From assembly GCA_902774185.1 (NCBI GenBank), contig CACYHE010000003.1, positions 11,997 to 75,996 of the forward strand: a stretch of 64,000 nt of DNA, given 5' to 3'. The notes below the pieces were generated by a model. That model was given only the letters and a program-made list of their open reading frames with translations. It had not been told where the DNA came from and searched no databases. Source of the stretch: an uncultured Bacteroidales bacterium. Lineage in GTDB: Bacteria; Bacteroidota; Bacteroidia; Bacteroidales; Paludibacteraceae. Below, piece by piece: positions 33,195 through 51,755 of this stretch. The stretch's first letter is position 1. Each line of letters opens with the position of its first letter. The position numbers and the translations under genes are program-made.

Positions 33195-33237
33195 CTCCGA
33201 CGTGCGCAATACCTAAATTTAGTGATTTTTCATTTTT

Positions 33238-33276: not shown

Positions 33277-33282
33277 GATTTT

Positions 33283-33696: not shown

Positions 33697-33697
33697 C

Positions 33698-33770: not shown

Positions 33771-33771
33771 C

Positions 33772-33917: not shown

Positions 33918-33923
33918 CATAGG

Positions 33924-35054
33924 ATGGCAGTAGAAATTCGAGAGATTCATACCGGAAGGGAAATCAAACAGTTCATTGAGTTCGCCAATGATCTATACAA
34001 GGGGAATGCATACTATTGTCCTCCTTTGTTCTTTGACGAGATGAACTGCTTCAATCCCAAAAAGAACCCGGCGCTTGAGGTGTGCGATTTCAAGATGTGG
34101 ATGGCATATCGGGACGGCAAGATCGTCGGTCGTGTCGCCGGCATCATCAATCGTCTTGCCAATGAGCACTGGAATGTGAAGAAAGTGCGTTTCGGTTGGT
34201 TCGATTTTATCGATGATATGGAGGTCAGTCATGCCCTGCTGGATACCGTTGCCGCATGGGGCAAGGAGCAAGGAATGGATGAACTGAACGGTCCCGTCGG
34301 CTTCACCGACTTCGATCATGAAGGACTGCTGCTGGAGGGATATGAGTATCGTGCGCCGATGGCTTCTCTCTATAACTATCCGTACTACGTTAAGCATGTG
34401 GATGCCTACGGTTTGACCAAAGAGGCGGATTGGATTGAGATGAAGATCAATCCGGGGGATACGTGTCCGGAGAAAGTGAATCGCGTGGCGGAGATTGTCA
34501 AACAGCGTTCACACGTGCGCGTGGTCAAAGTAAAGAACGTGCGCGAACTCAAACGTCGCTACGGTATGCAGTATATGGATGTTATCGACTCGGCCTACCA
34601 GAAGTTGTATAACTTCCAACCCATGACCCGGCGTCAGAAAGAGTACTATCGCGATATGTACCTGCCGCTGCTGAACTTCGATTTTGTGACGATTGTTGAG
34701 AATGAAGCACACGAAGTGGTTGGCGTCGCATTAGGTATGCCGGATATCTCGGAGGCTTTGCAGAAATGTGGAGGACACCTCTTCCCCTTCGGTTGGTATT
34801 ACCTGCTTAAGGCGCTGAAGTCGAAGAAGGTCAAAGCGTTTAACTTCCTGCTGATAGCGGTTCGTCCGGATTACCAGAATAAGGGTGTCGACACCCTCTT
34901 CTATCAGGACCTTATCCCTATCTTCGGACGCTATCATCTGTCGGGTTTGGATACCACGGCGATGTTGGAGAAGAATAACAAGATCTTGGATTTCTTCAGC
35001 CGCATCGACCACGTGCAGCATAAACGCCGCCGTGCATACATGAAGGCGATTTAA
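33924..35054 (+). CDS. GNAT-like acyl-CoA N-acyltransferase family protein (tentative)
   Basis: 376 aa. LLIAVRPDYQNKGVDTLF resembles GNAT motif A (Q/RxxGxG/A). No canonical promoter was seen between the repeat array and the ATG. Confidence 0.45.
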   Translation: MAVEIREIHTGREIKQFIEFANDLYKGNAYYCPPLFFDEMNCFNPKKNPALEVCDFKMWMAYRDGKIVGRVAGIINRLANEHWNVKKVRFGWFDFIDDMEVSHALLDTVAAWGKEQGMDELNGPVGFTDFDHEGLLLEGYEYRAPMASLYNYPYYVKHVDAYGLTKEADWIEMKINPGDTCPEKVNRVAEIVKQRSHVRVVKVKNVRELKRRYGMQYMDVIDSAYQKLYNFQPMTRRQKEYYRDMYLPLLNFDFVTIVENEAHEVVGVALGMPDISEALQKCGGHLFPFGWYYLLKALKSKKVKAFNFLLIAVRPDYQNKGVDTLFYQDLIPIFGRYHLSGLDTTAMLEKNNKILDFFSRIDHVQHKRRRAYMKAI

Positions 35055-36254: not shown

Positions 36255-36328
36255 GGCCCCGTAGCTCAATTGAATAGAGTGTCAGATTCCGGTTCTGAAG
36301 GTTCTGGGTTTGAGCCCCAGCGGGGTCA
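36255..36328 (+). tRNA. tRNA-Arg (anticodon CCG) with unusual D-loop/T-loop pair
   Basis: 74-nt cloverleaf with acceptor GGCCCCG/CGGGGTC and anticodon loop TTCCGGT. D-loop AATTGAATA has A at position 19 and T-loop TTTGAGC has T at position 56. Confidence 0.85.
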
Positions 36329-36391
36329 CAAAGCGGAAGCTCGCGCCGTTGGCGCAAATTAGTTTATTTAGCCAGCGGGGTCACAAAGCGG
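36317..36391 (+). repeat. 20-bp direct repeat of the tRNA-Arg 3' end (ccagcggggtcacaaagcgg at 36317-36336 and 36372-36391)
   Basis: Exact duplication read directly. The first copy includes the last 12 nt of the tRNA. Confidence 0.9.
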
Positions 36392-36420
36392 GCAACCATC
36401 TCGGTTGCTCGCTTTTTTTT
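36388..36420 (+). terminator. Rho-independent terminator after tRNA-Arg
   Basis: gcgggcaacc / ggttgctcgc forms a 10-bp stem (one G:U) with loop atctc, followed by T8. Confidence 0.8.
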
Positions 36421-36421
36421 A

Positions 36422-36448
36422 CCCCAAACACCCCAAAATCCCCAAATT
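36422..36448 (+). repeat. CCCCAAAnn 9-mer tract x3, intergenic
   Basis: ccccaaaca ccccaaaat ccccaaatt, directly after the tRNA-Arg terminator. Confidence 0.8.
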
Positions 36449-36510
36449 TTAAGAAAAAGTACAAATTATTTTGCATATTCCAACTATTTTTTGTAACTTT
36501 GCAGCCGAAA
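36447..36510 (+). promoter_or_regulatory. Promoter cassette of the nine-gene operon (near-duplicate of 55988-56050)
   Basis: ttttaagaaaaagtacaaattattttgcatattccaactattttttgTAACTTTGcagccgaaa, with the -7 box at 36494-36501. Confidence 0.7.
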
Positions 36511-36578
36511 TTATTATGCCTACGCGCGAGGCAAAAAAATAACCAACTAAATTGCTATAACATTAAATTCGATATACA

Positions 36579-39362
36579 ATGAAATGTCCTTATTGCGGCT
36601 ATGACAAAATTCAGCCGAACTTCAATTTCTGTCCGAAATGTAAACACTCGTTAAAAGATCAATCAGAGGTTAAAAACAGCACTCCTTCTGATTCCAGAGA
36701 TTCTGAAGAAAAAGGTTTCTTGAATCGCGCATTATCGCGTTGGACGTACGAAAGAGCAGCTGCCGATCCGTATTCCTATGCGCTTTGGGCTTACCGAAAT
36801 CCGAATGACAACCGCGTCTTCTTGGGGCGTTGGCATGCGGAGGGGCATGATTTAACTGCAATCCATCATGCTATATCAGAGGCTAACCGTGCACGCCAGG
36901 AGAACCCGACGGCAGACAGTGTTGATGTGGAGGGTAATATCATTGATTCTAACCGCCAGAATGCGCGTAGAGAAGCGAATAATAATTTTGTGGATACGGT
37001 AAACGCTGCCTATACAGCAGATGCAGCGGCTATTGTGCGCAATAAAGCGATTTGGAAACTGCAAGCCGGTGAATTGGCACGTCATATTGCCCCGGATGAG
37101 TGGGTGTATGTCACTGAGCATCTTGGTGGTGTGGTGATTGAAGAAGGAACGAGTGCAATCATCTATGTGGATGGTCAGGAAGTGGCGCAGATGGGTAGCG
37201 GCATGTATGTGTTTGACGATAAGCGTCAGGATGCTGAGATAGAGGCTAATAAGCGGAAACTGGAGCCGCAGGTGGAGCGTGGCTTCTTCGGAAGAATAGT
37301 GGATGGAATCCTTCGCTTCTTCTCCGGTCATAGAAACGATGAGGACGCTCAGCAACGCGAAGCACGTCGCCGTCGTGTAGAGCAGATAATGGGGCGGTTA
37401 AGAAAAGATACAATCATCGATATTTATCTTAAGTCGGATCGTATCTTCCCTGCTGTCTTTGGTAAGCAATATTTGGCTGATTCTCCGGAGGGATATGCGC
37501 CGTACGAGATACAATCACGCTATTTGGATCTGAAGGTGGGTGTAGCGATGCAGATGCAAATTTCAGATTTCAAATCCTTCATTACCAACTATATGCCGGG
37601 CAAGAAGACGGTTTCTATTGCGGATGTGGTGAAGAGTGCGGATAATGCGGTTTATAGCGTTTTACGCTTCCGCTTGCGTGATATAGAGGTGTCGGAGCGT
37701 GGCTTGGATGAAGCTACATTCAATGCAATCAAGATGCATTTGATGCAGAATGTGCCGAACCTGCTCCATGGCGTGAAAGTGATAGACGTGCTGGATATCA
37801 CAACGGATAATGAGAAACTGAGACGTTTCCGTGAAGTGGAGGGACAACTCTATAGCTCTGAGCGTGAGTACGATTTCTTGCTGCGCACCAATGAGTTCCG
37901 TAATCGTATCGCTGCGGAGGAGAATGACCAAAAGATACGTGAGGCTCGTTCGGAGCAGGAATTGCGGTTCCGTTTGGATGAACTTAATAAAGACAATCTG
38001 CTTCATGATGATGAGTTGGAGCAGTTTGTTGATCTCCTGAATAATCAAAAAATAATCCGGGAAGCTTCTAATCAATCGGATTTGGATCAGGCGTTGTGGG
38101 GAATTGAGCATAATCGACTTGTCTCGAAAGAGGAGTTTGATATCTTTAAACACGATCTTGATAAGCGTGATTTTGATAGAGCGCAGGTTTGGGAGCAATT
38201 CCGTGCGCGTTCTCTGCAGGCGACGGCTTTACAGAAATTGAAATTAGATACGGAACTTGATGTGGCTCATATTCATGCGGTTGACGAGGTGGATGATGCG
38301 AAGTGGGAAACAGTACGTAAACAAAAAGGAAGAGATGCTGAGAAGTGGGATTTGGATGCGGCTATCTATGGACGTAGATATGTGCTGGAGAAACAGCAAC
38401 TCTTGGATAATATAGAACAAGATCGGATCACTGCTCAGGGCAATCTGGATGTCAATAAGATTGAATTGGAGAATGCGCGTCAACTGGATGACTATTCGGA
38501 CCTTCGTTGGGAAAAAGAGCATGCACAGGATGAGAAGGCCAAAGAAGATGCGTATCAGCGCGAACTCCGCAGGAAAGAAGACGATTTGCGGCATATTCAA
38601 CAACAATTGGATATGAGCATGTCGGCTACCGAACGCGGTTCTCGGATTGCTTTGGAGAATATGCGCGCCATGAAAGAGATGGAGTTGGCTCAACTCAGAG
38701 AACAGCATGCGCATGAGCAGTCTATGGCGAATATTGATGCGGATGTACGGAAGACGGAGATAGAAGCCGAGAGCCATATGAATGCCGATCAGTTAGTCGG
38801 TAAAAACGTAACACGTATGGATGCTGCGGCGCAAGCCAAGTTCGCGGAGTCGTTCTCGCATATGAATGAAATTGAGTTAATGAAGCAAAATGCAGCTGAG
38901 CGCGAGAAATTATACCAGGAAATGGTGCAGATGGCAAAAGAGAATGGTATCAATACCGCCGAATTGCAGGCGCATAATGCAGATAAGCAACTCGATATTA
39001 TGCAACAGATGATGGCTGCCTTTACCCAGATGAACATGAGTCAGAATATGGGACAACATGGCGTTGTTAACTCGATGGTTAGTGTCATGCGCGATGTGGC
39101 GAATGGTAAAATCAAAGATGCGAAAGATCTGAAGGAAGAGTACCGTACGCAAATGCAGCACGAGCAAGAACGAGTGGATGAGAATCAACAACAATCGCTC
39201 AACTATACTACGCGTGTCAAGGTGTCGGAAAATGCACCTTATATGGGGGGAGGAACATCCGTAAGAGTAAATGTCGGTACGCGCACTTGTCCTTCGTGTG
39301 GAGAACCAATCAATGACCCTGATTCACTTTGCTGTCCTAATTGTGGTAGAGATCTGAAATAA
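36579..39362 (+). CDS. Double zinc-ribbon protein with SPFH (YdjI/Band_7_1-like) segment and very long coiled coil
   Basis: N-terminal CPYCG...CPKC and C-terminal CPSCG...CPNCG ribbons. SPFH-like strands IWKLQAGE...GVVIEEGTSAIIYVDGQEVAQMGSGMYVF and DIYLKSDRIFPAVFG. About 450 aa E/K/Q/R-rich heptad-like region. No signal peptide or TM. Confidence 0.6.
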   Translation: MKCPYCGYDKIQPNFNFCPKCKHSLKDQSEVKNSTPSDSRDSEEKGFLNRALSRWTYERAAADPYSYALWAYRNPNDNRVFLGRWHAEGHDLTAIHHAISEANRARQENPTADSVDVEGNIIDSNRQNARREANNNFVDTVNAAYTADAAAIVRNKAIWKLQAGELARHIAPDEWVYVTEHLGGVVIEEGTSAIIYVDGQEVAQMGSGMYVFDDKRQDAEIEANKRKLEPQVERGFFGRIVDGILRFFSGHRNDEDAQQREARRRRVEQIMGRLRKDTIIDIYLKSDRIFPAVFGKQYLADSPEGYAPYEIQSRYLDLKVGVAMQMQISDFKSFITNYMPGKKTVSIADVVKSADNAVYSVLRFRLRDIEVSERGLDEATFNAIKMHLMQNVPNLLHGVKVIDVLDITTDNEKLRRFREVEGQLYSSEREYDFLLRTNEFRNRIAAEENDQKIREARSEQELRFRLDELNKDNLLHDDELEQFVDLLNNQKIIREASNQSDLDQALWGIEHNRLVSKEEFDIFKHDLDKRDFDRAQVWEQFRARSLQATALQKLKLDTELDVAHIHAVDEVDDAKWETVRKQKGRDAEKWDLDAAIYGRRYVLEKQQLLDNIEQDRITAQGNLDVNKIELENARQLDDYSDLRWEKEHAQDEKAKEDAYQRELRRKEDDLRHIQQQLDMSMSATERGSRIALENMRAMKEMELAQLREQHAHEQSMANIDADVRKTEIEAESHMNADQLVGKNVTRMDAAAQAKFAESFSHMNEIELMKQNAAEREKLYQEMVQMAKENGINTAELQAHNADKQLDIMQQMMAAFTQMNMSQNMGQHGVVNSMVSVMRDVANGKIKDAKDLKEEYRTQMQHEQERVDENQQQSLNYTTRVKVSENAPYMGGGTSVRVNVGTRTCPSCGEPINDPDSLCCPNCGRDLK

Positions 39363-39368
39363 GCAACC

Positions 39369-40913
39369 ATGTTTACAGGATTAATACTGACGGATACACA
39401 GCGTTTGGCTGATGCGATGGGAGAAAAGCACTCTGAGGTGTTGGAAACGCTATTCTCCTATGTGAATGGGAGCAAGGCATATATTAATTGGGTCATGGTG
39501 GATGCCTCTGATCCAATGTATGCGGATATGAACAAAGAGGATTGGCATGCATATGCTTCCATTTTGAATGATTATTATTTTGGTTTAGGCCTGAAGGACT
39601 TCGGTAATTTTCCTTTGTTCATCATAGGTGGAGAGGATGTTATTCCTATGCCGACGGCTCAAAATCCCTTGCAGGCTTCTGGAGGAGAATTCTTGAGTTC
39701 AGACATGCTCTATTGCTTCGATACACAGAATGGATATAGCGAACTCCAATTAGTGATGGATAAACCGCGCTTTGCTGTAGGTCGATTACCGATAGCCAAT
39801 GAATATACCCTGGTGGATCTGCAAAATTATCTGGAGGATTGTCTTGCGCGTACCCCGGATGGAATACACGTACGAGGTGCAGCGATGACGACCACGGAAA
39901 GTTGGTTGCGTGCTTCCAAAGAGATGATGAGGGATCTTCCTATCGCCTCATTATCTGAAGAATATGTGCCCCTTAACGAGCGCATGATTGTGAGCCCGTT
40001 ATTGGATACTTCCTATCAGGATATGTATGACGGTTATGTACACGAACTGAAGAAAGTGGACTTCCTGGTATGTAATCTGCATGGCTCTGATGAACCCGGA
40101 CATCCACAGTTCTTTGGAGAAGATAAAGAGGGAACCAAGAAAACCATCGCAACACAACCTTCTATGTTGGAGCAGACATGCCCCTTGATTTTTAATACCG
40201 TTGCATGCTATGGCGCTCGTTACACCGGATACGAGATGGACGACTCCATGCTTCTTATGGCAATGGCATACGGTACACTCTTGTATTGCGGCGCTTGCGA
40301 TACCTCTTTTGGCGGTCCGGAAGAGGATGGAGTGGCAAGAGAGGGTAGGTCTGAACTGCTGATGAAACTCTATAATATCTATCTCCACCAAGGACAACCC
40401 GCCGGTATGGCGTTGCTCAAAGCCAAACAGGATTATTACCGCACCTGTCATACGTTTGATAGCGATGAACGGGCGATGTTCACCATCTTGGAGTTTAACC
40501 TCTTCGGATGCCCGATTTTGGCGATGCAACCGGAACTGCCGGAAGATTATCGACCGCTATTGCTGAATAACAGAATAGTTGCGAACCAATCGGTTACCTA
40601 TCAACCGAAGAAATCAAAACCGGTGTGGAACTCTGCTTATCAGGCAGAAGATATCCATGCCTACGTGCAAAGATTGGTTGATAATAATCTTACCCTCATT
40701 CGCCAGAAAGTAGAAAAAGAAGTGTATCAACGTTTGGGACTCGGAAAAGATAGTCTGCGGGTCGTTTTAAGCATAACGCAAAATAATAACGAAGTCGGCT
40801 ATCAGTTCGTCTATCGTTGGTCTCCGCAAGGAGTATATAGTCGGATGGAGATGTGTTGCCTTGTTGATACGGATATGCAGGGTAGCATTGTAGAAATAAC
40901 ACGAACCAAATGA
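39369..40913 (+). CDS. Cytoplasmic gingipain(C25)-like clan CD cysteine peptidase homolog (tentative)
   Basis: No signal peptide. Motif order is LFIIGGEDVIPMP, SDMLYC, PRFAVGRLP, then VCNLHGS (His-Gly) and NTVACYG (Ala-Cys) after hydrophobic strands. Confidence 0.5.
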   Translation: MFTGLILTDTQRLADAMGEKHSEVLETLFSYVNGSKAYINWVMVDASDPMYADMNKEDWHAYASILNDYYFGLGLKDFGNFPLFIIGGEDVIPMPTAQNPLQASGGEFLSSDMLYCFDTQNGYSELQLVMDKPRFAVGRLPIANEYTLVDLQNYLEDCLARTPDGIHVRGAAMTTTESWLRASKEMMRDLPIASLSEEYVPLNERMIVSPLLDTSYQDMYDGYVHELKKVDFLVCNLHGSDEPGHPQFFGEDKEGTKKTIATQPSMLEQTCPLIFNTVACYGARYTGYEMDDSMLLMAMAYGTLLYCGACDTSFGGPEEDGVAREGRSELLMKLYNIYLHQGQPAGMALLKAKQDYYRTCHTFDSDERAMFTILEFNLFGCPILAMQPELPEDYRPLLLNNRIVANQSVTYQPKKSKPVWNSAYQAEDIHAYVQRLVDNNLTLIRQKVEKEVYQRLGLGKDSLRVVLSITQNNNEVGYQFVYRWSPQGVYSRMEMCCLVDTDMQGSIVEITRTK

Positions 40914-42682
40914 AAACTTGTAGTAATTGTGGTCAGTCCTGTCCGGATGATGCAATAATATGTCCCATCTGTGGGGCTGAGTTTGAATCTGTCCCGGGAC
41001 AGTCGAATATCAACATGGGTAATGCCAATGCGATCAGCGGTGACATTCATTCCACCGACGACCATTCCTCGCACGATAGTAACAACCAGTTGAATAGCAA
41101 TAATGCGTCGAATAGTTACAACACCACAAATAACACCACGATTCACGAAGCGCAAAAGAGCGAAAGCACGTTGTTGAATGAGAACAAAATGGCTTATCGC
41201 TTGAAATGTAAAGAGCTTTTTGAGGATGGTCACATGATCGGCAATGGCGAAAGTCAGTTGCGAGAACTGCAGGTGAGTCTTAATCTCGCGGATGAGATTG
41301 CGCTTCCGATCAAGGAAGAGATTCGACTTCAAAGCAAGAAACGCAAGAAACAACTACCGTTGGGAGGAAAGCAAGAGATTAACCAAACCAAGACTATTAT
41401 CGAGCAAAATGTCACATCTGCGTTGCAGCGTCAATTGGTAAAACTGGAACAGTGGATGCAGGAATACGATGATGACTCGTTGAAATCTGTATATTATCAG
41501 ATGGCATCGATGCTTGAGCCGGTGCGATATACCAATCGCTATGAAGACTCTGCAAAGGACGAATATTGGGAGGCATATTGGGCATACATAGCATATATGC
41601 TCCAGACTCGTTTCAAAGAGGCGGATGAGGCTCTTGCGTCATTAGGCAGATGGCATGCCCACTATCCGGAGCAAAACGATGTCATTCTGTTCCTTGCCGG
41701 TCAACTCATGCAAAATGATTCTTTGGAGAGTGCGCAGAAAGTACGAGGCACGCTACCGGCTCATTATTCTCCGAATTTGCAGTTGCTCTTGGATGCAATG
41801 GACGAATTATTGCAAAAGGACTATGAGAAAGAGTTTGTAAGCATTCGTCCGGTTCACGCGTTTTATATCAATTCGTTGTTTACGGAATTTTTTGATACAC
41901 AAAAAGCGAACGGCTTGCAACGTATAGAAGATGCTAAGATTAGAAAAGCACAAGAGGAACAGATTGAGAGGGACCGGCTTCATGAACAGGAATTAGCCCG
42001 GCAGGCTGCGGCTAAGGCGCAAGCAGATGCAGATGCGGAATCTGCACGCTTGGCTGCTTTACAGCAAGATGCTGAGAATATCGCAAAAGCGCAGGATTTG
42101 GCTAATCAGCAGCAGGAGACGGAAGCAGCAGCTGCTGCTCGAGCAAAAGCAGAAGCAGAGCGGATTGAACAGGAACGTCTTGCTGCTGAAGAAGAGGAAC
42201 TCCGCAGAAGAGAAGAAGAAAAACGTCGCCGCAAAGCAGCCCGTATCGCCTGGCTCGAACGAAATTTTTGGTATATAGCGGGAGGAATAATAGGAATAGT
42301 TCTCATAGCTTTCCTTTCTACGTGGGTACCGAAAAAAGTGAAATCGAAAGAAGCGGAAAAAGAATCGCAAAGGATAGAGTTAGATAATTATGAATTGTTG
42401 ATCTCTACCTGCAAAAACAATATTGCTTTGAGCACGACGGATAATCTTGTCCCCTTAGATTCTGCCGCTCATCAGTTGGTAAGAATTAAGCGTGAGTGTA
42501 AGCGTCTTGAACAAGATGCAACTAAGGTAAAACAATTGGACGAACAGTTTGTTACAAAAGCTCGGGCATTGGAGAATACGCTGAAAACTTTAGCAGATCA
42601 TCCGCTTAATACAGAACAAGCCATTGGATGCAGCGAGAAATGTATAAATATTGAATCATGGATTAACTTTATTGATCAATGA
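40910..42682 (+). CDS. Zinc-ribbon, coiled-coil, single-pass membrane protein
   Basis: CSNCGQSC...CPICG, an N/S-rich linker, a helical region and an A/E/R-rich coil. TM is FWYIAGGIIGIVLIAFLSTWV. ATGA overlap with the upstream gene. Confidence 0.6.
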   Translation: MKTCSNCGQSCPDDAIICPICGAEFESVPGQSNINMGNANAISGDIHSTDDHSSHDSNNQLNSNNASNSYNTTNNTTIHEAQKSESTLLNENKMAYRLKCKELFEDGHMIGNGESQLRELQVSLNLADEIALPIKEEIRLQSKKRKKQLPLGGKQEINQTKTIIEQNVTSALQRQLVKLEQWMQEYDDDSLKSVYYQMASMLEPVRYTNRYEDSAKDEYWEAYWAYIAYMLQTRFKEADEALASLGRWHAHYPEQNDVILFLAGQLMQNDSLESAQKVRGTLPAHYSPNLQLLLDAMDELLQKDYEKEFVSIRPVHAFYINSLFTEFFDTQKANGLQRIEDAKIRKAQEEQIERDRLHEQELARQAAAKAQADADAESARLAALQQDAENIAKAQDLANQQQETEAAAAARAKAEAERIEQERLAAEEEELRRREEEKRRRKAARIAWLERNFWYIAGGIIGIVLIAFLSTWVPKKVKSKEAEKESQRIELDNYELLISTCKNNIALSTTDNLVPLDSAAHQLVRIKRECKRLEQDATKVKQLDEQFVTKARALENTLKTLADHPLNTEQAIGCSEKCINIESWINFIDQ

Positions 42683-43440
42683 AAAGAATTGTTTTAGCAT
42701 TAATAATGATGTCTTCGGTAGTTATTACCTTGCAGGCTCAAGGTTGTGTATCATACCTTGAGACGGGAAAATCGGCCATCGCGGATAGCGAGCGCGATGA
42801 GGCGAAATTACTTGAACTGGAAAAATATTTCTTGAATATTGATGCGGCATGCAAGAGCGAAATAGGGAATAGTGCAGCTTTATGTGCAGAGCATGTTAGA
42901 GATTTAAGAAATAAACTCGTAGAAGCAAGGAAACGTGCAGAATTACAGCGTAAGGAAAATGAAAAAAGAATAAAGGAGGAGGAACGCAAAGAATTGGAAC
43001 GCATCCAGAAAGAGCGGGAAGATAGAATAGCAAATAATTTGCTATATATTGAAGGGTATGGTCATCTTAAGGATGACACGAACTATCCTATCGTCAGTCT
43101 TATCAAAGGAAATCTTTCGAAACAATACAAATATAAATATGCGCAAAGTGCTGAAAAAGCAGTGTGGGGTATCTATATTGCTATTGATTCAAGGAATGTG
43201 CGCTTGGTAGAGAATACAGGACAGTATATGGCATATGCTGTACCAATGATGCTTATCAAAAATTTAGTAACGGGAGAGGTTGTTTACGAAGGCAGCGGTT
43301 TGGAATTTGCGGAAGACTATAAAGGGGAAGATGCTAAGTATTCGATAGGCATAGAGGAATTAGCTACTATTCGCAGTGCTTTTAGAAAGACTATTGATCC
43401 GTTAAGTTTAACAATATCAAATTTTATCCAACATGAATAG
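42679..43440 (+). CDS. Exported protein with K/E-rich coiled-coil segment
   Basis: Signal peptide MKRIVLALIMMSSVVITLQAQ and an ATGA overlap with the upstream gene. Confidence 0.55.
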   Translation: MKRIVLALIMMSSVVITLQAQGCVSYLETGKSAIADSERDEAKLLELEKYFLNIDAACKSEIGNSAALCAEHVRDLRNKLVEARKRAELQRKENEKRIKEEERKELERIQKEREDRIANNLLYIEGYGHLKDDTNYPIVSLIKGNLSKQYKYKYAQSAEKAVWGIYIAIDSRNVRLVENTGQYMAYAVPMMLIKNLVTGEVVYEGSGLEFAEDYKGEDAKYSIGIEELATIRSAFRKTIDPLSLTISNFIQHE

Positions 43441-44449
43441 AAAATCGTATCTTATTATAGTTGTATTGTGGCTGTTTAATCTTGTCGCATATGCTGAGTC
43501 TAGGGGAGGGCTTGTAGCTGTCTTTGTGGATGGAGATAGTAATGTGCCCGAGGAATACAAACGCTTGTTACAATCAAGTATGGAGGAAGGTTTGGTTGAT
43601 TGTAGTTATGCTGTTGTTGCGCATGATGCTGAGTACTTAAAGATGTCTCGTGATTATAGTGATTATGTTAGGAAAAGTACCATATCCGAGTTTGCATTTG
43701 ATAATGTTACTTCAGAGAGTTTGGCGGATTCGTTATGCTTCCTTTATATTGTACAATTAGGCAAAGGTTCATATCGGATAGAAGCAACTATGACAGGTTA
43801 TGGTGCAAATGCCTCTAAAAAGAAAAAGACATATCCAAGTTTAGGAGAAAGTAGATGTAACTTAGAAGAGAATACAGCGGAGCAAGTTCAAATAGCAACT
43901 ATAGAATTGCTTCTTAAATTGGGCTTCATAACCCCGGAAAGAAAGGAGCAGATGCTTAAAGTATATAAGGAAAAAAAAACTAAAGCCGAAGAAGATCTAG
44001 AAAAGAAAATGAAGCAGATAGATGGAATAGCTTTAGCTGCTTCTTTCTTCGTACCTGGAGCAGGTCAAATGTATAAGGGTGAGGGTGGTAAAGGTGCCGG
44101 TATCCTGATTAGCGAGGTCGCGTTAGTGGGAGGTGGTGTAACATGTTATTTCCTGGGGAAAAAACAATTGAATATTATGCGTGATAGAACGGTGGAATAT
44201 ACGGCCTTTAATGCAGCACAAAAGAACTACAATACGATGAGAATTATAAGTTATTCGTGCTATGGGGCAGCGGCTGCATTATATATTTTTAACTTATGTC
44301 ATGCGTATTTAATGCTTCCATCTGAAGACCCAAAGGTCAAAAAACGTTTGGGAGTAGAGGAAATTGGTTTCTGCCCTTCAATAATGCCAATCAACGAATT
44401 TTCCAGCCCTTCTTATGCTATGGGCGCCGGCATACAAATTAAATTTTGA
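43433..44449 (+). CDS. Exported protein with C-terminal TM hairpin (PGxGQxY motif, DUF5683/TM2-like)
   Basis: Signal peptide IVVLWLFNLVAYA. FFVPGAGQMYKGEGGKGAGILISEVALVGGGV followed by a second TM. 8-nt overlap with the upstream gene. Confidence 0.55.
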   Translation: MNRKSYLIIVVLWLFNLVAYAESRGGLVAVFVDGDSNVPEEYKRLLQSSMEEGLVDCSYAVVAHDAEYLKMSRDYSDYVRKSTISEFAFDNVTSESLADSLCFLYIVQLGKGSYRIEATMTGYGANASKKKKTYPSLGESRCNLEENTAEQVQIATIELLLKLGFITPERKEQMLKVYKEKKTKAEEDLEKKMKQIDGIALAASFFVPGAGQMYKGEGGKGAGILISEVALVGGGVTCYFLGKKQLNIMRDRTVEYTAFNAAQKNYNTMRIISYSCYGAAAALYIFNLCHAYLMLPSEDPKVKKRLGVEEIGFCPSIMPINEFSSPSYAMGAGIQIKF

Positions 44450-44454
44450 GGCAT

Positions 44455-45753
44455 ATGAAAAGAAGTATATTACTCATTTTGACACTTACTGCATTCCTGT
44501 TCTCGGGATGTTTAAGGAATTTGGAAAAAGAAGGGATAAACCCAGAAACAGTATATAAAGGGCGTGTTATTGATGCTCAAGGTAATCCGTTAAGTGGAAT
44601 TATGATCCGCATCACTAATGATCAAGTGATTTATAATTCTGTCACAACAGACTATGATGGTCTATTCCTACTGAAGGTAGATATGAGCAAAATTGATGAT
44701 AACTACTATGTGCTAATTGGTGATATTAAAGGAGAACATAGACGAGGAAAATTAAGAGGTTTTGGACAGGATGTTTATGACTATGGTGATATTCCGTTTG
44801 TCAATATCAATATACCCCAGATAGGAGCAACTGAACTGATGGATGTCTCATTCAACTCATTCACCTGTCAATGTGAAGTGGCTTCTAAGGGAGGATCAAC
44901 TGTAACAGAAAGAGGTGTTTGTTGGTCTAGTAGTGTTCCTACGATTAAAGACAATGTAGTTAAATGTGGAGTTGGTGAAGGTGTGTATTCTTGCTATATT
45001 AGCGATGATACCTTTGATTTCAACACGATAACCATCTATGCTCGTGCTTACGCGATTAATGAATATGGAGAAACTTACGGTGATTTGATTGAAATTAATC
45101 AAGTACAATTGAATAAGTTCATGAAAATTAAGTTACCCACAGTAGAGACAATTGGACTTACCGCCATGACATCTAACTCCTTTACTTGCAAATGCAATGT
45201 GATATCCCAAGGAAAGGCTATTGTGACCGAACGTGGAATTTGCTGGTCAACTAATATACCAACCATCCAAGACAATAAAGTACTATTCGGAGGTGGAGAA
45301 GGTGTTTATTCGTGCACCGTTACTGGGCTTGATTTTGGCAGTACGACATATTACGCGCGTGCTTATGCCATTAATGAATACGGAGAGTCATATGGAGAGC
45401 CGGTCGAGGTTAATTCCAGTAGAGTGGCATATTTCTCATTACCTACAATGGATTTTGGTGGGTATACCTATCATATCCATCCCGACATGGGAGGCATGCA
45501 ATGGATACAAGGGGAAGAAGCTTGCAATAATCTTGTGGCATACGGCTTTGATGACTGGTTTATGCCGAATAAAGAAGAAATGTTAGCTATTGCCAAGATT
45601 GAGAATGTATTGGATAAAGTTATTAGATATTGGACGAGCTCTGATGCTGGAAGTCCTTATTATTATTTCGTATATTACAATTACGGGTGGGATACTAGTG
45701 ACGCCGGGCGATCGAACGTTTATCATATTGTCCCGGTTAGAAGAGATAGATAA
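44455..45753 (+). CDS. Lipoprotein: CarboxypepD_reg-like domain, two internal ~95 aa repeats, DUF1566-like C-terminus
   Basis: Lipobox LFSGC and YKGRVIDAQGNPLSGIMIRI. Repeated TERG[VI]CWS...YARAYAINEYGE[TS]YG. DWFMPNKEEMLAI...YWTSS. Confidence 0.6.
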   Translation: MKRSILLILTLTAFLFSGCLRNLEKEGINPETVYKGRVIDAQGNPLSGIMIRITNDQVIYNSVTTDYDGLFLLKVDMSKIDDNYYVLIGDIKGEHRRGKLRGFGQDVYDYGDIPFVNINIPQIGATELMDVSFNSFTCQCEVASKGGSTVTERGVCWSSSVPTIKDNVVKCGVGEGVYSCYISDDTFDFNTITIYARAYAINEYGETYGDLIEINQVQLNKFMKIKLPTVETIGLTAMTSNSFTCKCNVISQGKAIVTERGICWSTNIPTIQDNKVLFGGGEGVYSCTVTGLDFGSTTYYARAYAINEYGESYGEPVEVNSSRVAYFSLPTMDFGGYTYHIHPDMGGMQWIQGEEACNNLVAYGFDDWFMPNKEEMLAIAKIENVLDKVIRYWTSSDAGSPYYYFVYYNYGWDTSDAGRSNVYHIVPVRRDR

Positions 45754-45765
45754 AATTTAAAAAGT

Positions 45766-46260
45766 ATGAAAAAGAAAACATATGTATGGGCTATTGTAGC
45801 CATCTTGACTATTTTATGTGTTGCATGCTCGAGAAATCCGGATAAGGATATGACGAGTGTGCAACGAATAATGGGAGCTGGTGATTGTATAAAATGTGAA
45901 GGGTGGTCTTGGAGTAATGGAGAGGCTACGACGACAAATACAAGTAGTGATTTGGAAATGCACTCTTTCTCCTTTAAAGTAACCGTAACAGGCGAGTTGT
46001 CTTTTTATCATAAAATGGAGTCATATTATACCGTTCCGGAATTAGATGTATCAATTGATGATAAAACGTATTTTCATGTAAGGTATGGGTCATATAGTTA
46101 TGACGCAAAACAATCATCTATAGGTGATGTGAAAGCAGGTGACACTGTAACATTTTCAGGTGTATTTTATACTGTAAAGGATATACAAATTGTTGGAGAG
46201 GCAGGGAGTTCTAATCAAAGCGGAACGGAAGATAGTTCCGGTCATCAGTGGGACTTTTGA
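45766..46260 (+). CDS. Small lipoprotein, unknown function
   Basis: Lipobox ILCVAC and a beta-rich sequence. Confidence 0.5.
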   Translation: MKKKTYVWAIVAILTILCVACSRNPDKDMTSVQRIMGAGDCIKCEGWSWSNGEATTTNTSSDLEMHSFSFKVTVTGELSFYHKMESYYTVPELDVSIDDKTYFHVRYGSYSYDAKQSSIGDVKAGDTVTFSGVFYTVKDIQIVGEAGSSNQSGTEDSSGHQWDF

Positions 46261-46291
46261 TGCTGTATTTTGAGGCAGATTTCAAAATATC

Positions 46292-46843
46292 ATGAATAGG
46301 ATAACTATAAAATATCTTATAATTGCATGTGCAGCAACTTTGTTGATGATTCCGGTATGTGCACAAAATTATGGCCCGAAAACAATAGGAAATGCTGCGG
46401 TAGAAAATCAGGAATTAAATGGTGGATATAAAGAAACATCAGCGAATGAAGAGAGATCGAGCACTAAACCGGAGGCGAACATAACAAATGTACGAATAGA
46501 AGAAGGAACGAACGATAGCGGACAAGCAGGTGTGTGGGTTCGCTTCTCTATTGAACTTAGAGGGCTGAATTCTAAAAAATGCTATGCTTCCGCATGGTTT
46601 CATAAGGATGTTGTGCATCAGGCAGGTGCTGATCAAGAATGGGAGTTGCAGATGTCCCCAAATATGGTTATTTGTCCTTCTACCGATAAGTGGACTAAAC
46701 CGGACTTTGCAATGTTTGTTCCGTTTAGTAAAGTGGATATGATTGCAAATGAGGGTGTATATACGTGTGAAATACACATATGTAATACCGAATATGTGTC
46801 ATTAGGGAAATCTAATTCTTATAGCTTTACGATCAAAAGATAA
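46292..46843 (+). CDS. Small exported protein, unknown function
   Basis: Signal peptide IIACAATLLMIPVCAQ. Confidence 0.5.
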   Translation: MNRITIKYLIIACAATLLMIPVCAQNYGPKTIGNAAVENQELNGGYKETSANEERSSTKPEANITNVRIEEGTNDSGQAGVWVRFSIELRGLNSKKCYASAWFHKDVVHQAGADQEWELQMSPNMVICPSTDKWTKPDFAMFVPFSKVDMIANEGVYTCEIHICNTEYVSLGKSNSYSFTIKR

Positions 46844-46879
46844 TTCTCCTCATACTGACAATTATTATACCTTACTCAC

Positions 46880-49861
46880 ATGGAACAGGATCAGAAACAT
46901 TATTATGCGTTTATCTCCTACAAACGTGAGGATAAGAAAGAGGCGAAAAAATTGCAGCACACATTGGAGTATTATAGGCTCCCCAATAAGTTGCGGCAAG
47001 AGAATCCGGAGTTGCCGGAATATGTTCGTCCGGTTTTCCGTGATTTGACGGATCTGGAAGTGGGAGAACTGCCTGAACAAATTCATAAAGCGCTTAACCA
47101 ATCGCATTTCTTGATTGTTGTTTGTTCCCCTCGTGCCGCCAAGTCCCAATGGGTGAATGATGAGATAGAGTATTTTATTTCATTGGGCAAGCAAGAAAAG
47201 ATCATTCCTTATATTATTGAAGGTGTTCCCCATGCGGATGATCCGGATGAAGAATGTTATCCTCCGGCATTGTTGTCTCTCTCTAAGGAAAAAGAATTGC
47301 TTGGCGCGAATATTAACGAAGTGGGCAAAGATTCTGCTGCTATCCGTGTGGTATCGCGTATGTTCAATATCCGTTTCGATACGCTGTACCAACGCTACCG
47401 AAGGGAGAAACGAAAAAATAGAATCATTAGATATTCAACGGTTGCCGTCTTTGTTTTATGCCTGCTCTCGTTCTTATTGTATGTCCTTCATGCCAATAAT
47501 CGGTTAAGAGAAGAGAATTATAAAACATGGGTGAGCCAATCTAAATTTATTATTGAAAAGGCTAACTCATTGATGGACGATGGCGACATGTATCTGGCGT
47601 CTCGATTGCTGTTAAGTATAACACCGAAGGGTAATTCTACGAACCGACCGATTATGCCAGAGTTGGCATGTGCCTTGCGTAAAGTAGAGGATTATTTGTC
47701 GCATGAAAAAGAATCTCCGGTTTCTACTATCGGCCCAGGTCTCGGGGAACTGGAAAGAACCGATTATGGGCTGAAAGTATCTCTTTGTCCTAAGGAAGAT
47801 AAAGTTATAATATATGGGACGTATAGCAATATAATACGGGTATATTCGACCATTAATGGAAAATTATTATATTCTTTAAAGAATCCACATAGTGAGGGCA
47901 TCTATACTTGTGTTTATAATACGGATGGAGATATTCTCGCTACTGCATCTTCAAAGGATGGTATGGCTGTTCTTTGGGACTTGAATACAGGAGAAGAACT
48001 CTATCGTTTAGAGAGCCACGAAAATGCAATAAGGGATATTGTTTTCAGTCCGGATGGGAAATATATAATAACTACAGCAGACGCGAAGTGTTATCTGTGG
48101 AATATCTCGGGACAACTATTAGATACCATAACTGCAAAAAGTCGTATAGTAAAAACAAGACTTAGCAGACGTAGTGACTATATCTCTCTGGCTTGTATTG
48201 GAAGAGTTCAACTCGTTCAAATAGTAGATGATAAATTGCAATTGGTGGCTGATTTTGTACACGATGAAAGGGACTGGGCGGTATATATGGGAAGTATCAG
48301 CGATGACTCTAAATATCTTGCAACATGTTCCGATGATCAGGAAGTAAAGATATGGGATATTAAAACAGCAAAATATCTATATACTTATTCGTCTTCGTCC
48401 GGTTATTTGCGAGATGTTGCGTTTTTGGATGATACGCGTGTGTTGGTTTCTTGTTGCGATGGTTCTGTCGAAATAAGGAATGTCGTGAAGAACGAACGGG
48501 AAGTATATTATACGTCAGCATGGATTATACACACATCATCGGGCGATGCAATTATTGGCAGAGAGATGGAAAATGGTACGACCATTATTAACTATAAATT
48601 AGGAAATGTGCAATTTCTCAAAGATACCAACGAGCAATTACATGCTATAGATGTGAATTATTACACGGGAAAAGCTGTCACTGTAGCATCGGATGGAAAG
48701 GTCAGACTGTATGACTTGTTTGATTGTCTTACGGAAAAGTCAAGAGTGTTAACTGAAGTGGGAGGCTATTATGTATATTTCAATATTCATTCTTTATGCC
48801 AAAATAAAAATGGAAATTTATTATTGGCTGCATATAGAGATAGCGTAGCATCTTTAATAGACTATTGCAGTGGTGAAAATTTACTAATATGTAAAGGACA
48901 TGAGCAGGAGTTGTATTCTGCCAATTTTAATACGCATGAAAATCACATTGTAACAACTTCCTATGATGGCACAGCGCGCGTCTGGGATGTCGAGCAACTT
49001 AAATCCCCTGTCGTATTACATCATGAAGAACCTCTGTATTATGCCGAATTTATCGACAATGATCAAAAAATCCTCTCGTTTTGTAGATCAGATATATATG
49101 TATGGAATGCACATAATGGTAGTTTGCTACAAAGATTAAAAGGAGAGGAGCCTCCTATAAAGAATGATCCAGCAGATATATTCAGCGAATACATTCATGA
49201 TGTTAGTGCCGTAATATTCGATTCTGTTAGATCGTGCATATGGGCTGCTTATCGTGATGGTATTATTAGAATCTGGGATTATAATAACGAAATGGTAATA
49301 AAAGAGATAAAAGCACACCAAGATCCGACTTCAATCAAGTTGACAGATGATTATCTAATATCTTTTGCCGATGAAATTAAGGTTTGGAATGCCAATACCG
49401 GTGAACTTATTTCCGTATTAGACGGTCATGATTATACCATCGGAGACCTCTTAATTCTTCCGAATAGTCCATATCTGTATTCTTCTTCGATGGATGGCAA
49501 ATTATTAAAATGGAATTACAAAACAGGAGAACTAATCAAATGTATCAAAGAGGATAACTCGTGTGGTATAGATAATCTCAGTTTCAAAGACGGGTATTTG
49601 TTGGCGGTATCCGAAGATAATCATATATATGTATTTGATGTGCGGGATGATTCACAGATTTGTGATTATGCTGTGCCGGAGAAAATATACGGAGATGTCC
49701 AGTTTAGCAACTATGATGGTAATATAATTGTCCCGATTACGAGTGGCAAGATCCTGTTATATGACTTCAGTGATATTCGTCAAGTTGTGCTCGACCTGAA
49801 AAACAGGTTGGGGGATTATACTCTCACTCCCGAAGAACGCAGAAAATATTATCTGGAATAA
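46880..49861 (+). CDS. TIR domain - single TM - WD40 repeat protein
   Basis: TIR_2-like N-terminus YYAFISYKREDKKEAKKL...FLIVVCSPRAAKSQWVNDEIEYF. RYRREKRKNRIIR followed by the TM YSTVAVFVLCLLSFLLYVL. Many WD40 units follow (for example LATASSKDGMAVLWDLNTGEE, IVTTSYDGTARVWDV). Confidence 0.8.
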   Translation: MEQDQKHYYAFISYKREDKKEAKKLQHTLEYYRLPNKLRQENPELPEYVRPVFRDLTDLEVGELPEQIHKALNQSHFLIVVCSPRAAKSQWVNDEIEYFISLGKQEKIIPYIIEGVPHADDPDEECYPPALLSLSKEKELLGANINEVGKDSAAIRVVSRMFNIRFDTLYQRYRREKRKNRIIRYSTVAVFVLCLLSFLLYVLHANNRLREENYKTWVSQSKFIIEKANSLMDDGDMYLASRLLLSITPKGNSTNRPIMPELACALRKVEDYLSHEKESPVSTIGPGLGELERTDYGLKVSLCPKEDKVIIYGTYSNIIRVYSTINGKLLYSLKNPHSEGIYTCVYNTDGDILATASSKDGMAVLWDLNTGEELYRLESHENAIRDIVFSPDGKYIITTADAKCYLWNISGQLLDTITAKSRIVKTRLSRRSDYISLACIGRVQLVQIVDDKLQLVADFVHDERDWAVYMGSISDDSKYLATCSDDQEVKIWDIKTAKYLYTYSSSSGYLRDVAFLDDTRVLVSCCDGSVEIRNVVKNEREVYYTSAWIIHTSSGDAIIGREMENGTTIINYKLGNVQFLKDTNEQLHAIDVNYYTGKAVTVASDGKVRLYDLFDCLTEKSRVLTEVGGYYVYFNIHSLCQNKNGNLLLAAYRDSVASLIDYCSGENLLICKGHEQELYSANFNTHENHIVTTSYDGTARVWDVEQLKSPVVLHHEEPLYYAEFIDNDQKILSFCRSDIYVWNAHNGSLLQRLKGEEPPIKNDPADIFSEYIHDVSAVIFDSVRSCIWAAYRDGIIRIWDYNNEMVIKEIKAHQDPTSIKLTDDYLISFADEIKVWNANTGELISVLDGHDYTIGDLLILPNSPYLYSSSMDGKLLKWNYKTGELIKCIKEDNSCGIDNLSFKDGYLLAVSEDNHIYVFDVRDDSQICDYAVPEKIYGDVQFSNYDGNIIVPITSGKILLYDFSDIRQVVLDLKNRLGDYTLTPEERRKYYLE

Positions 49862-49915
49862 AGGATGCAATAATTTAGACACATTTCAAAAAAAAGCAGT
49901 ACCTTTGCAGCCGAA

Positions 49916-50035
49916 ATGAAAAATTGCATAAATCATTTCAAAATGGATAGCACACAAAAGAACATTAAAGCAAGGATTGTAAAGGGCGGAAGAGGTCGTT
50001 GTATCTTCTCGCAAGACTTTGCGGCGTGCGGCTAA
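49916..50035 (+). pseudogene. Truncated 5' copy of abiEi (39 codons) with its own promoter copy
   Basis: 49878-50022 is near-identical to 54221-54365 (promoter plus MKNCINHFKMDSTQKNIKAR...GRGRCIFSQDF). The reading frame then diverges and stops at 50033-50035. Confidence 0.8.
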
Positions 50036-50036
50036 T

Positions 50037-50263
50037 TTTCAGGGCTCAATTTAAAGAAATCACAGGCTATACCCCGAATCCGGATTTCATATAATGTATG
50101 TCCGTTCCTCCGGATTCTATCCGGATACCTTCGTTAAGTGCGCGCGTTGACAAACGCGCGTTCTTTCTTCGTTCATTAGTCCCGAATCTGATTCGGGTTC
50201 AAAACATCGTTCATTAGGTTGGATGCCATCCAACAAAGGGACATGATGTAAATCTTACGCTCA
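50037..50263 (+). repeat. Copy 1 of a ~230-bp repeat (3' tail of a gene remnant plus three stem-loops)
   Basis: It matches 52881-53110 except for one substitution and a 3-nt indel. Hairpins lie at 50141-50160, 50181-50197 and 50218-50234. Confidence 0.9.
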
Positions 50264-50375
50264 TTTTCTGCCGAAATGCACCGAAAACATATATTTTTTG
50301 CAAAAAAACAATAATATTTTTGCACAAATGAAAACTTTTTTGTAATTTTGCAAACATAATTTGAAACCGGAAAAC

Positions 50376-51755
50376 ATGATGAAGCGAACAAGTGCTGTAA
50401 TACTATTATTGATTTGTGTATGTTTTGCTTATGCAGTAGAACAAAAGGTACAAATCAATGGCGTATATTTCATACTCAATGAAGAATTTCAAACGGCAGA
50501 AGTGACGTTTAAGGGGAATTTCTACTATGAGTTTGATGAGTATCAGGGTGATGTGGTTGTCCCGTCGAGAGTCGTTTATAACAATACGGCATATCGGGTC
50601 ATCGGCCTCAGTCCTGCGGCATTTGCCAATTGTAAATCGCTCAAAAGTGTGCACTTGCCGAATACCATTCGGATGATCAGTAGGGAGTGCTTTAAGAATT
50701 GTAGCGCATTGCAGTCCGTGGTGTTACCGGAAAAGTTAGAGGTCATTCGTACGGAAGCATTTGCTAATTGTCGTCGATTAACAACAATCAATTTTCCATC
50801 CTCTATCACTACGATCTGTGATAAGGCCTTTATGGGATGTAAGCAATTATGCAAAGTGTACACCCTTGCTCCGCAAATCAGTACATGCGCCTTTGATGCT
50901 ACATGCACGGTGTATAATCAAGCATTGCCGACCCAACTTGTTCCTGAACCGGAAGATAGAGTGCCGGCTATCATCAGTGATGTAGATACCAATATTCCCC
51001 AAACGGGCAAGCATAATGAAACAACACTGGTTGTTATTATCGCGAACGAGCATTATCAAGAAGTAGCCTCTGTGCCCTATGCTATTCATGACGGAGAAAT
51101 TTTCTATGAATATTGTATCAATACCTTGGGCATCCCTGCAGAACATATCCGCTTTACGAAAGATGCAACACGTAATAACATGCGCCGCCAACTAAATTGG
51201 TTGTCAGCAGCGGTTTCTGCTTTCAATGGTGAGGCTAAAGTGATTTTCTATTATGCCGGTCACGGTATTCCAAATGAATCAACGAAGAAAGGATATCTGC
51301 TTCCTTCGGATGGCTTTGGCGATGATATCAATTCGGCCTATGCATTAGATGATATCTATGCCACTCTGGCAGCCATGCCGACCAAAAGTGTGACTGTTTT
51401 TCTGGATGCTTGTTTCAGCGGTTCTAATCGCAACGGCGAGATGGTAGTAAATACACGTGGCGTAGCCCTTTCTGTTAAAAAGAATGTGCTGAGCGGTAAT
51501 CTGGTTGTTTTCTCGGCAACGGCGGATGACCAAACAGCCTATCCGATTAATAATGAAGGACACGGTATGTTTACCTATTATCTGCTCAAAAAACTGCAAG
51601 AGACCAAAGGGGATGCATCTATGGGAGAGATAGTTGAATATGTACAAAATAGCGTCAATAAACGAAGTATTTTGGTTAATAGCAAAAGCCAAACCCCTTC
51701 GATTAATGTTTCACCGGCAATCGGCAATGATTGGAAAAAAATAGTATTGAAATAA
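50376..51755 (+). CDS. Secreted LRR_5 (BspA-type) - caspase-like (Peptidase_C14) fusion protein, paralog 1
   Basis: Signal peptide MMKRTSAVILLLICVCFAYA. LRR_5 units (AFANCKSLKSVHLPNTIRMI, CFKNCSALQSVVLPEKLEVI). Caspase dyad contexts VIFYYAGHGIP and VFLDACFSGS. -7 box TAATTTTG at 50343-50350. Confidence 0.8.
   Translation: MMKRTSAVILLLICVCFAYAVEQKVQINGVYFILNEEFQTAEVTFKGNFYYEFDEYQGDVVVPSRVVYNNTAYRVIGLSPAAFANCKSLKSVHLPNTIRMISRECFKNCSALQSVVLPEKLEVIRTEAFANCRRLTTINFPSSITTICDKAFMGCKQLCKVYTLAPQISTCAFDATCTVYNQALPTQLVPEPEDRVPAIISDVDTNIPQTGKHNETTLVVIIANEHYQEVASVPYAIHDGEIFYEYCINTLGIPAEHIRFTKDATRNNMRRQLNWLSAAVSAFNGEAKVIFYYAGHGIPNESTKKGYLLPSDGFGDDINSAYALDDIYATLAAMPTKSVTVFLDACFSGSNRNGEMVVNTRGVALSVKKNVLSGNLVVFSATADDQTAYPINNEGHGMFTYYLLKKLQETKGDASMGEIVEYVQNSVNKRSILVNSKSQTPSINVSPAIGNDWKKIVLK

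Follow-up and report, generated by a model that had tools for sequence, protein, structure and literature searches.

A conserved three-gene module of gut Bacteroidales coding for a predicted SPFH-fold protein, a gingipain-like protease and a zinc-ribbon membrane protein, joined in one strain by a separately mobile TIR gene

We analyzed a 64,000-nucleotide stretch of DNA, referred to as the window, from an uncultured Bacteroidales bacterium of the Paludibacteraceae (contig CACYHE010000003.1, positions 11,997 to 75,996 of the forward strand). The subject of this study is a cluster of nine + strand genes located at positions 36579-49861 of the window, which we name g1 to g9. An original prediction made from the sequence of the window had taken these nine genes for one envelope-linked conflict system with g9, a gene coding for a Toll/interleukin-1 receptor (TIR) domain, a transmembrane (TM) segment and a WD40 array, as part of it. 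The results presented here show that g1, g2 and g3 constitute a conserved and apparently undescribed three-gene module of gut Bacteroidales, and that g9 is a separately mobile gene that is independent of this module. We hold it to be somewhat probable that the locus as a whole is a composite, made up of an envelope-linked SPFH-protease-anchor module (g1-g3) and the separately mobile TIR gene.

Homologous loci were collected from GTDB species genomes with an alignment of g2 relatives as anchor. This yielded 80 loci (loci and contigs are referred to by L numbers), the open reading frames (ORFs) of which were compared with g1-g9, after which their neighbors were clustered. Nearly all these loci belong to Bacteroidales, mostly from the gut. 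A homologue of g1 was found in 73 and a homologue of g3 in 67 of the 80 loci, always near g2 and in at least three different gene orders. The g2-anchored scan, which relies on sequence patterns, confirmed only 86 stretches among 185,579 species genomes, and the g2 family, searched for among 1.84 billion cluster representatives, comprises 226 of them at E ≤ 1e-30 (clusters at 50% identity). Neither the module nor the g2 family was present in the phage collection. The sole plasmid match to the g2 family, a distant C25 peptidase of Bradyrhizobium, was set aside as its context is unrelated.

The other six genes behaved differently in this survey. Recurrence of g4-g7 was limited to the closest relatives (including L005-L008, L018 and L085), and g8 and g9 were absent from all 80 related loci and also from L082-L088. 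The core is accompanied by g8 and g9 in no strain but that of the window (L001 and L095). The view that the nine genes are co-conserved as one system is therefore not upheld by the 80-locus survey, in which only g1-g3 are widely conserved, and co-occurrence of g9 homologues with the g1-g3 trio was looked for and not found outside the window's own strain. On the other hand, the statement that no system with such a gene set has been described agrees with our searches. NCBIfam contains no family for g1-g8, PADLOC gave no match for any of these eight genes, and no description of the trio was found in the NCBIfam models, the PADLOC models or the literature searched.

Gene g1 (36579-39362) codes for a cytoplasmic scaffold protein of 927 amino acids in which a TM scan detected no TM segment. 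It has a zinc ribbon at each end, as had been predicted. The C-terminal one (39279-39356, residues 901-926) matches Pfam Zn_ribbon_3 (2.7e-7), and the N-terminal one (36579-36653), a CxxC..CxxC pattern recognized by eye, recurs in the homologues. No Pfam SPFH family matched the protein encoded in the window, and among 33 of its homologues three matched Band_7 and two matched Band_7_1, both weakly (E ~5e-4 to 8e-4). Two word-index searches retrieved only 12-13 g1 homologues, resulting in a shallow alignment, and the AlphaFold2 (AF2) model of g1, based on 10 sequences, covers residues 140-600. All of the top 27 Foldseek matches of this model in the PDB (pLDDT 70) were SPFH proteins; they include HflK/C, stomatin (template modeling score, TMt, 0.68), flotillin and major vault protein. 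According to this model, g1 carries an SPFH-fold core (~37011-37808) that is followed by long helices (~37809-39218). It is the structure model alone that supports the SPFH-like segment proposed for g1. As to the coiled coil of about 450 amino acids proposed to follow it, the model is indeed helical from about residue 411, but it covers this region no further than residue 600. Within the SPFH domain, an insertion (residues ~233-250, window positions 37200-37330) contains an amphipathic hydrophobic stretch, GFFGRIVDGILRFFSG, and similar stretches are present in distant g1 homologues; judged by its sequence, this stretch could be an in-plane membrane anchor.

The product of g2 (39369-40913) is a predicted cytoplasmic cysteine protease of clan CD, 514 amino acids long, with a C25-like architecture. 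It matches Pfam Peptidase_C25 with 25.8 bits (cut-off 23), and its AF2 model (pLDDT 85.5, pTM 0.90) has the gingipains Kgp and RgpB as best Foldseek matches (E 2.5e-11 to 1e-9, TMt 0.52-0.54). A second tier of matches is formed by CHAT proteases (Csx29 TPR-CHAT and SAVED-CHAT) and separase, with E values from 1e-6 to 1e-3. The alignment places the predicted catalytic residues at His238 (40080-40082) and Cys280 (40206-40208), and H238, G239 and C280 are invariant in 78 out of 78 g2 relatives. Model, alignment and Pfam match agree on a caspase-hemoglobinase fold in which a His-Gly motif is followed by an Ala-Cys motif. An N-terminal hydrophobic segment is absent from g2 and from all 89 members of the family, and g2 also lacks a TM segment. 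With respect to features of gingipain secretion, Pfam gave Peptidase_C25 alone, the models of the pro-domain and of the C-terminal domain of type IX secretion substrates not having been checked individually. The original assignment of g2 as a signal-less protein with the C25 motif order and a His-Gly/Ala-Cys dyad therefore stands. Sequence-profile searches of the PDB with the g2 family, with the g1 core and with the N-terminal domain of the long g2 form gave no significant match.

This long form of g2, of 790-970 amino acids, occurs in L021, L023, L025, L027, L029, L034, L038, L040, L041 and L054, and has an N-terminal helical domain of 270-450 amino acids with an invariant R-N-x3-H motif. In L040 it contains an additional zinc ribbon. 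At the sequence level the motif resembles that of HEPN RNases; the domain obtained no PDB sequence match and no profile or structure support as a HEPN domain.

The third member of the module, g3 (40910-42682), codes for a protein with an N-terminal zinc ribbon (40910-40981, Pfam 7.8e-5), a helical region rich in Glu, Ala, Lys and Arg, a single TM segment (42272-42328, residues 455-473, TM scan) and a C-terminal domain of about 117 amino acids that is predicted to be periplasmic. The zinc ribbon and the single TM segment are as originally proposed.

The genes that accompany the module differ between lineages. Most commonly, in about 25 loci, the module belongs to another nine-gene operon, which is likewise tight (gaps ≤50 nt) and whose exported partners mostly have leaders. 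Its gene order is SLT lytic transglycosylase, protease g2, SPFH protein g1, c6 (a 127-amino acid acidic protein), anchor g3, a FlgT_C-like protein, DUF6175, an LPP20 lipoprotein and a small lipoprotein. A variant module combines an ATPase in which a zinc ribbon is joined to an AAA domain (ZnR-AAA) with the long protease carrying the R-N-x3-H N-terminal domain. In another variant, found in the clade of L009, L010, L014 and L020 (and partially in L012 and L013), the genes of the SPFH protein, the protease and the anchor show tight linkage to GYF_2, a Zn-ribbon protein, a PD-(D/E)XK_4 nuclease, a second protease paralogue and a DUF4011 helicase-MTES_1575 nuclease (Hhe-like). Contig L085 (16.4 kb, ENA ERZ12302816) has a relative of the window operon followed by at least seven more Zn-ribbon proteins and a second, zinc ribbon-fused C25-like protease. 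Most of the 148 genes flanking the core elsewhere have housekeeping functions. FKBP, TerD, kinases, TonB_C and BamD/YfiO are recurrent families among them, catalase, phosphofructokinase (PFK) and phosphoglycerate kinase (PGK) are among the families matched once, and few flanking genes match defense models.

Gene g9 (46880-49861) is physically the last gene of the cluster and is not a conserved member of the module. Its proposed domain composition was confirmed: a TIR_2 domain (46910-47227, Pfam 1.4e-13), one TM segment (47438-47494, residues 187-205) that is conserved in homologues, and a WD40 array (~47753-49765, Pfam WD40 1.4e-44). In alignments with TcpB and AtTIR, which are weak (E 0.4-0.7), Glu95 (47162-47164) falls opposite the Glu of these proteins. 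In PADLOC g9 matched the ThsB-like and SAVED_TIR models, that is TIR models only. The TIR domain is probably an NADase. The residues preceding the TM segment (RYRREKRKNR) are far more basic than those following it. By the positive-inside rule the TIR domain is therefore predicted to be cytoplasmic and the WD40 region of about 780 amino acids to be periplasmic, which would be an unusual site for WD40 repeats. Five metagenome contigs (L089-L093) carry relatives of g9 that are 69% identical to it over the TIR-TM part and have their TM segment in the same position. These relatives have further TIR_2 genes, a TPR-CHAT protease gene and a CHAT fragment as neighbors, but never relatives of g1-g8.

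Between the module and g9 are five genes, g4-g8, whose products all have N-terminal hydrophobic leaders according to the TM scan, in line with the prediction that they are exported. Pfam scans of the g4, g5, g7 and g8 families revealed no meaningful family. The g4 protein (42679-43440) has a leader, a coiled coil and a C-terminal domain without a Pfam match, and has homologues only in close relatives (L007, 5e-133; L005, L006, L008 and L085, weakly). The g5 protein (43433-44449) consists of an exported N-terminal domain and a C-terminal membrane part, as had been proposed for one of the five, with a further TM segment at 44099-44155 and a weak match to DUF6677. Its homologues are in L005-L008 and L018, and with hhalign its family, c14, showed weak similarity to c4, the FlgT_C-like family (82.5%). 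The product of g6 (44455-45753) is a predicted lipoprotein, in which a lipobox, FSGC, was recognized by eye. The CarboxypepD_reg-like N-terminus and the Lcl_C (DUF1566)-like C-terminus claimed for it were both seen, but these matches remained below the Pfam cut-offs; homologues are present in L002, L003, L005, L007 and L018. Finally, g7 (45766-46260) codes for a small lipoprotein with a hydrophobic leader and a VAC-S lipobox and has a single weak homologue (L007, 8e-5), and g8 (46292-46843) codes for a small exported protein with a hydrophobic leader and has no homologue in any other locus.

The ORF listing confirmed the positions of all nine genes, although for g6 the ORF finder gives a longer frame starting at a TTG codon (44446). 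The genes are as tightly packed as described, the successive junctions being +6, -4, -4, -8, +5, +12, +31 and +36 nt. A predicted promoter cassette of the Bacteroidetes type is located upstream of g1 on the + strand (36456-36508), with TAACTTTG as -7 box (36494-36501) and a TTTG at about -33. In the scanned region, 36300-50400, TAACTTTG at 36494 is the sole TAnnTTTG with an upstream TTTG before position 49900, which agrees with the single upstream promoter proposed; the next copy of the cassette begins directly after the g9 stop codon, at 49862. No convincing + strand terminator was found inside the cluster. The lone upstream promoter-like cassette and the lack of an internal terminator mean that transcription of the nine genes as a single unit fits the sequence. 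Gene g9 is probably co-transcribed with the module, yet it is not a conserved partner. The G+C content at third codon positions (GC3) is 0.44-0.47 in g1-g3 versus 0.29-0.35 in g4-g9, with a break between g3 and g4.

Defense genes lie downstream of the cluster. RelB/PIN, AbiEi/Eii and two leucine-rich repeat (LRR)-caspase genes are present in the window, as reported, but a defense island as the general setting of these genes is not: it is local to the window, the flanks of the core elsewhere being mainly housekeeping. The promoter cassette is one of seven copies of about 53 nt (family D2, TTTGCA..CAAAAAAAAGCAGTAnnTTTGCAGCCGA), located at 33226-33278, 36456, 49862, 53128, 54203, 61820 and 63674. 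Copies precede the transfer-messenger RNA (tmRNA), the g1 operon, RelB and AbiEi, and further copies lie in or just upstream of two other ORFs (61835-62749, and the last copy at the window end). The sharing of this cassette between the g1 operon and the second LRR-caspase gene was confirmed (74%). The region directly after the g9 stop codon (49862-50022) consists of a 53-nt cassette that is 66-72% identical to the family reference, and a 110-nt stretch, a 94% copy, with a short truncated ORF at its end. The counterpart of this copy (54203-54364) overlaps the 5' part of the AbiEi/DUF6088 ORF (54168-54890), and the fragment after g9 seems to be left over from a rearrangement in which an AbiE module was split. 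Direct repeats of about 230 nt with 99-100% identity (50034-50263 and 52878-53110) bracket the first LRR-caspase gene (50361-51755) and the next ORF of 292 amino acids, which suggests that this cassette was recently inserted or duplicated. The AbiEi fragment and the near-identical repeats thus mark the 3' side of the cluster as a recombining hot spot. We also considered whether L001, a 13.4-kb contig with exactly the nine genes, is a mobile unit. This was rejected: because its ends coincide with the repeated promoter and AbiEi-fragment sequences, they are an assembly break.

Upstream of the cluster, the 3' end of the tRNA-Arg gene is duplicated as described, a 19-nt exact copy being present 55 nt downstream (36318-36336 and 36373-36391), and a strong terminator hairpin (36385-36415) follows the second copy. 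As an island boundary this repeat was rejected: the window has only these two adjacent copies and no third one, so that no boundary is defined. An Rfam scan gave the tmRNA and tRNA-Arg only. At 33760-33937, between tRNA-Ala and a 376-amino acid ORF (33924-35054) that has no Pfam match, a 10-nt unit (ATCAAACRAW-like) is tandemly repeated about 13 times. These repeats are directly downstream of the tmRNA (33283-33697), and tmRNA genes are a classic integration site.

SPFH proteins such as flotillins, stomatins and HflK/C are universal membrane scaffolds that often control a partner protease, recurrent pairs being HflK/C with FtsH and stomatin with NfeD. The module shares with HflK/C-FtsH and stomatin-NfeD/STOPP the genetic linkage of an SPFH scaffold to a protease, and HflK/C and stomatin are, with flotillin, among the structures matched by the g1 model. 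It differs from these systems in that g2 is a cytoplasmic clan CD cysteine peptidase instead of an AAA+ metalloprotease or a ClpP-like serine protease, that g1 is cytoplasmic without a TM segment of its own, and that neither an NfeD OB-fold protein nor FtsH is involved. Another comparison is with YdjI (SamI), YdjG and YdjH of Bacillus subtilis. YdjI is a soluble protein with a C-terminal zinc finger whose binding to the membrane requires YdjG/YdjH (PMC8581546; bioRxiv 10.64898/2026.02.06.704340). Both systems have a TM-less SPFH protein with a C-terminal zinc finger and an operon partner with an N-terminal CxxC and TM helices as membrane tether, a role that is predicted for g3; a link with envelope stress (PMC8581546) would also be common to both if our view of g1-g3 is correct. 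However, g1 is three times longer than YdjI, has a helical region of about 450 amino acids and a second zinc ribbon, and Pfam Band_7_1 is undetected in the g1 of the window. In addition, the g1-g3 module has an obligatory clan CD protease and exported partners, and contrary to pspA-ydjGHI no PspA/ESCRT-III gene is present in the window module; PspA/IM30 gave no match among g1-g9 or the scanned recurrent neighbor families.

With the gingipains (MEROPS C25: RgpB, Kgp), its best structural match, g2 shares the order His-Gly...Ala-Cys and a weak Pfam C25 match, but its sequence identity to them is only about 10%, it lacks a signal peptide, it is cytoplasmic and it is operon-linked to an SPFH protein. 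The clan CD fold is common to g2 and the caspase-like CHAT immune proteases (Csx29 TPR-CHAT, SAVED-CHAT), its second-tier matches, whereas g2 has no CRISPR, CBASS, SAVED or TPR partner and its architecture is nearer to C25. As for g9, it resembles TIR effectors of the ThsB, TIR-STING and TIR-repeat types in its TIR_2 domain with conserved Glu, its PADLOC matches to ThsB and SAVED_TIR, and the location of its relatives among TIR and CHAT genes. It differs in lacking a ThsA, STING or NTPase partner and in having a TM segment that splits the TIR domain from the WD40 array, which is predicted to be periplasmic. No ThsA-like protein (SIR2/Macro-SLOG) of the Thoeris type was found among g1-g8 or the neighbors. 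The trio thus resembles an SPFH-protease pair with a YdjG-like tether but belongs to none of these named systems.

The composite reading that we favor allows the following mechanism to be proposed. Like other SPFH proteins, g1 may assemble at the inner membrane, on its cytoplasmic face, into an oligomeric ring or cage. Having no TM segment, g1 would need a tether, and g3 is the obvious equivalent of YdjG/YdjH; by analogy with YdjI/SamI, g3 may therefore anchor g1 at the membrane. The g1 scaffold would hold or gate the protease g2, after the example of HflK/C-FtsH and stomatin-NfeD. Coupling of the module to the state of the envelope could be provided by the periplasmic tail of g3 and by lineage-specific exported partners, which would be g4-g7 in the window and SLT, FlgT_C-like, DUF6175, LPP20 and a lipoprotein in most other lineages. 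The output of the module could be either repair and quality control or suicide of the cell. Gene g9 would then have landed as the 3'-most gene of the cluster, where this borders on the recombining defense hot spot.

Several observations weigh against this reading. The g1 model is only moderate (pLDDT 70, 10-sequence alignment) and the Pfam SPFH matches are weak. Homology of g4-g8 to the LPP20, DUF6175 and FlgT_C-like sets is weak at best, being limited to g5 (hhalign 82.5%). Gene g9 starts 36 nt after g8 without a recognizable promoter, so that a lineage-specific functional link is possible, and L007, the closest relative with g4-g7, reaches a contig edge before the position at which g9 would be expected. 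Moreover, conflict-type partners occur in some variants (PD-(D/E)XK, DUF4011 helicase-MTES_1575, ZnR-AAA ATPase and the R-N-x3-H fusion), and these fit defense better than housekeeping. Tight spacing, the single promoter-like cassette, the lack of an internal terminator, the Glu retained by the TIR domain and the defense genes downstream would all suit the original view, in which the nine genes make up a single envelope-linked conflict system whose NAD+-depleting effector is the TIR-TM-WD40 protein. We nevertheless regard that view as improbable, as neither g8 nor g9 occurs in any of the 80 related loci or in L082-L088, relatives of g9 exist without g1-g8, GC3 changes after g3, and the nine-gene order is found only in the window's own strain.

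Less easily dismissed, though on balance unlikely, is that the g1-g3 core itself is an anti-phage or abortive-infection system, in which the scaffold holds the protease inactive until the envelope is perturbed, the variable neighbors are interchangeable effectors or sensors, and g9 is a recently recruited effector. Conservation of the core while gene order and partner sets vary would be in agreement with this, as would the tight linkage of PD-(D/E)XK and DUF4011 helicase-MTES_1575 nuclease genes in six loci and of a ZnR-AAA ATPase in others, the paralogue expansion in L085, the defense hot spot in which the window copy lies and the resemblance of g2 to the CHAT proteases of CRISPR and CBASS systems. 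The distribution is possibly patchy as well, with only some Bacteroides species among the loci listed by the pattern-limited scan. The invariant, HEPN-resembling R-N-x3-H motif of the long protease points in the same direction, but it has no profile or structure support. Against this reading, the flanks in the 80 genomes are mostly housekeeping genes (PGK, PFK, catalase, BamD, FKBP) with few matches to defense models, PADLOC gives nothing for g1-g8, the module is absent from phage and plasmid collections, and its commonest partners, SLT, LPP20 and DUF6175, are structural envelope proteins. These same partners could point to a housekeeping role of the module, within a machine that carries out trans-envelope assembly, secretion or vesicle formation. 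SLT and the LPP20/FlgT-like lipoproteins would then construct something in the periplasm or outer membrane, one component of which is matured by the protease. SLT, LPP20, FlgT_C-like and DUF6175 genes do share a tight operon with the module in about 25 loci, and the flanks are housekeeping; however, an ATPase, a secretin and a channel component are all missing from the common operon, the entire set of exported genes is exchanged from one lineage to another and no paper describing such a machine was found. We consider this explanation doubtful.

Finally, it is conceivable, although rather unlikely, that the core is a membrane-anchored immune or suicide switch: an SPFH cage would hold the caspase-like protease, a breach of the envelope would free it and effectors would be plugged in. 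Equally speculative is the identity of such plug-in effectors, which could be TIR-WD40 in the window and HEPN-like fusions, helicase-nuclease or PD-(D/E)XK partners elsewhere. If this were true, the module would provide the first SPFH scaffold that regulates a bacterial caspase-like death protease.

Returning to the composite reading, our analysis corrects a tempting interpretation of the locus in that the TIR gene does not define the system. What the conserved module does contain is an SPFH protein with two obligatory partners, a gingipain-like cysteine protease of the cytoplasm and a Zn-ribbon membrane anchor. This combination occurs widely and has apparently not been described before. Should the module control proteolysis according to the state of the envelope, it would constitute a new regulatory device in dominant gut bacteria and also a new context for caspase-like proteases.

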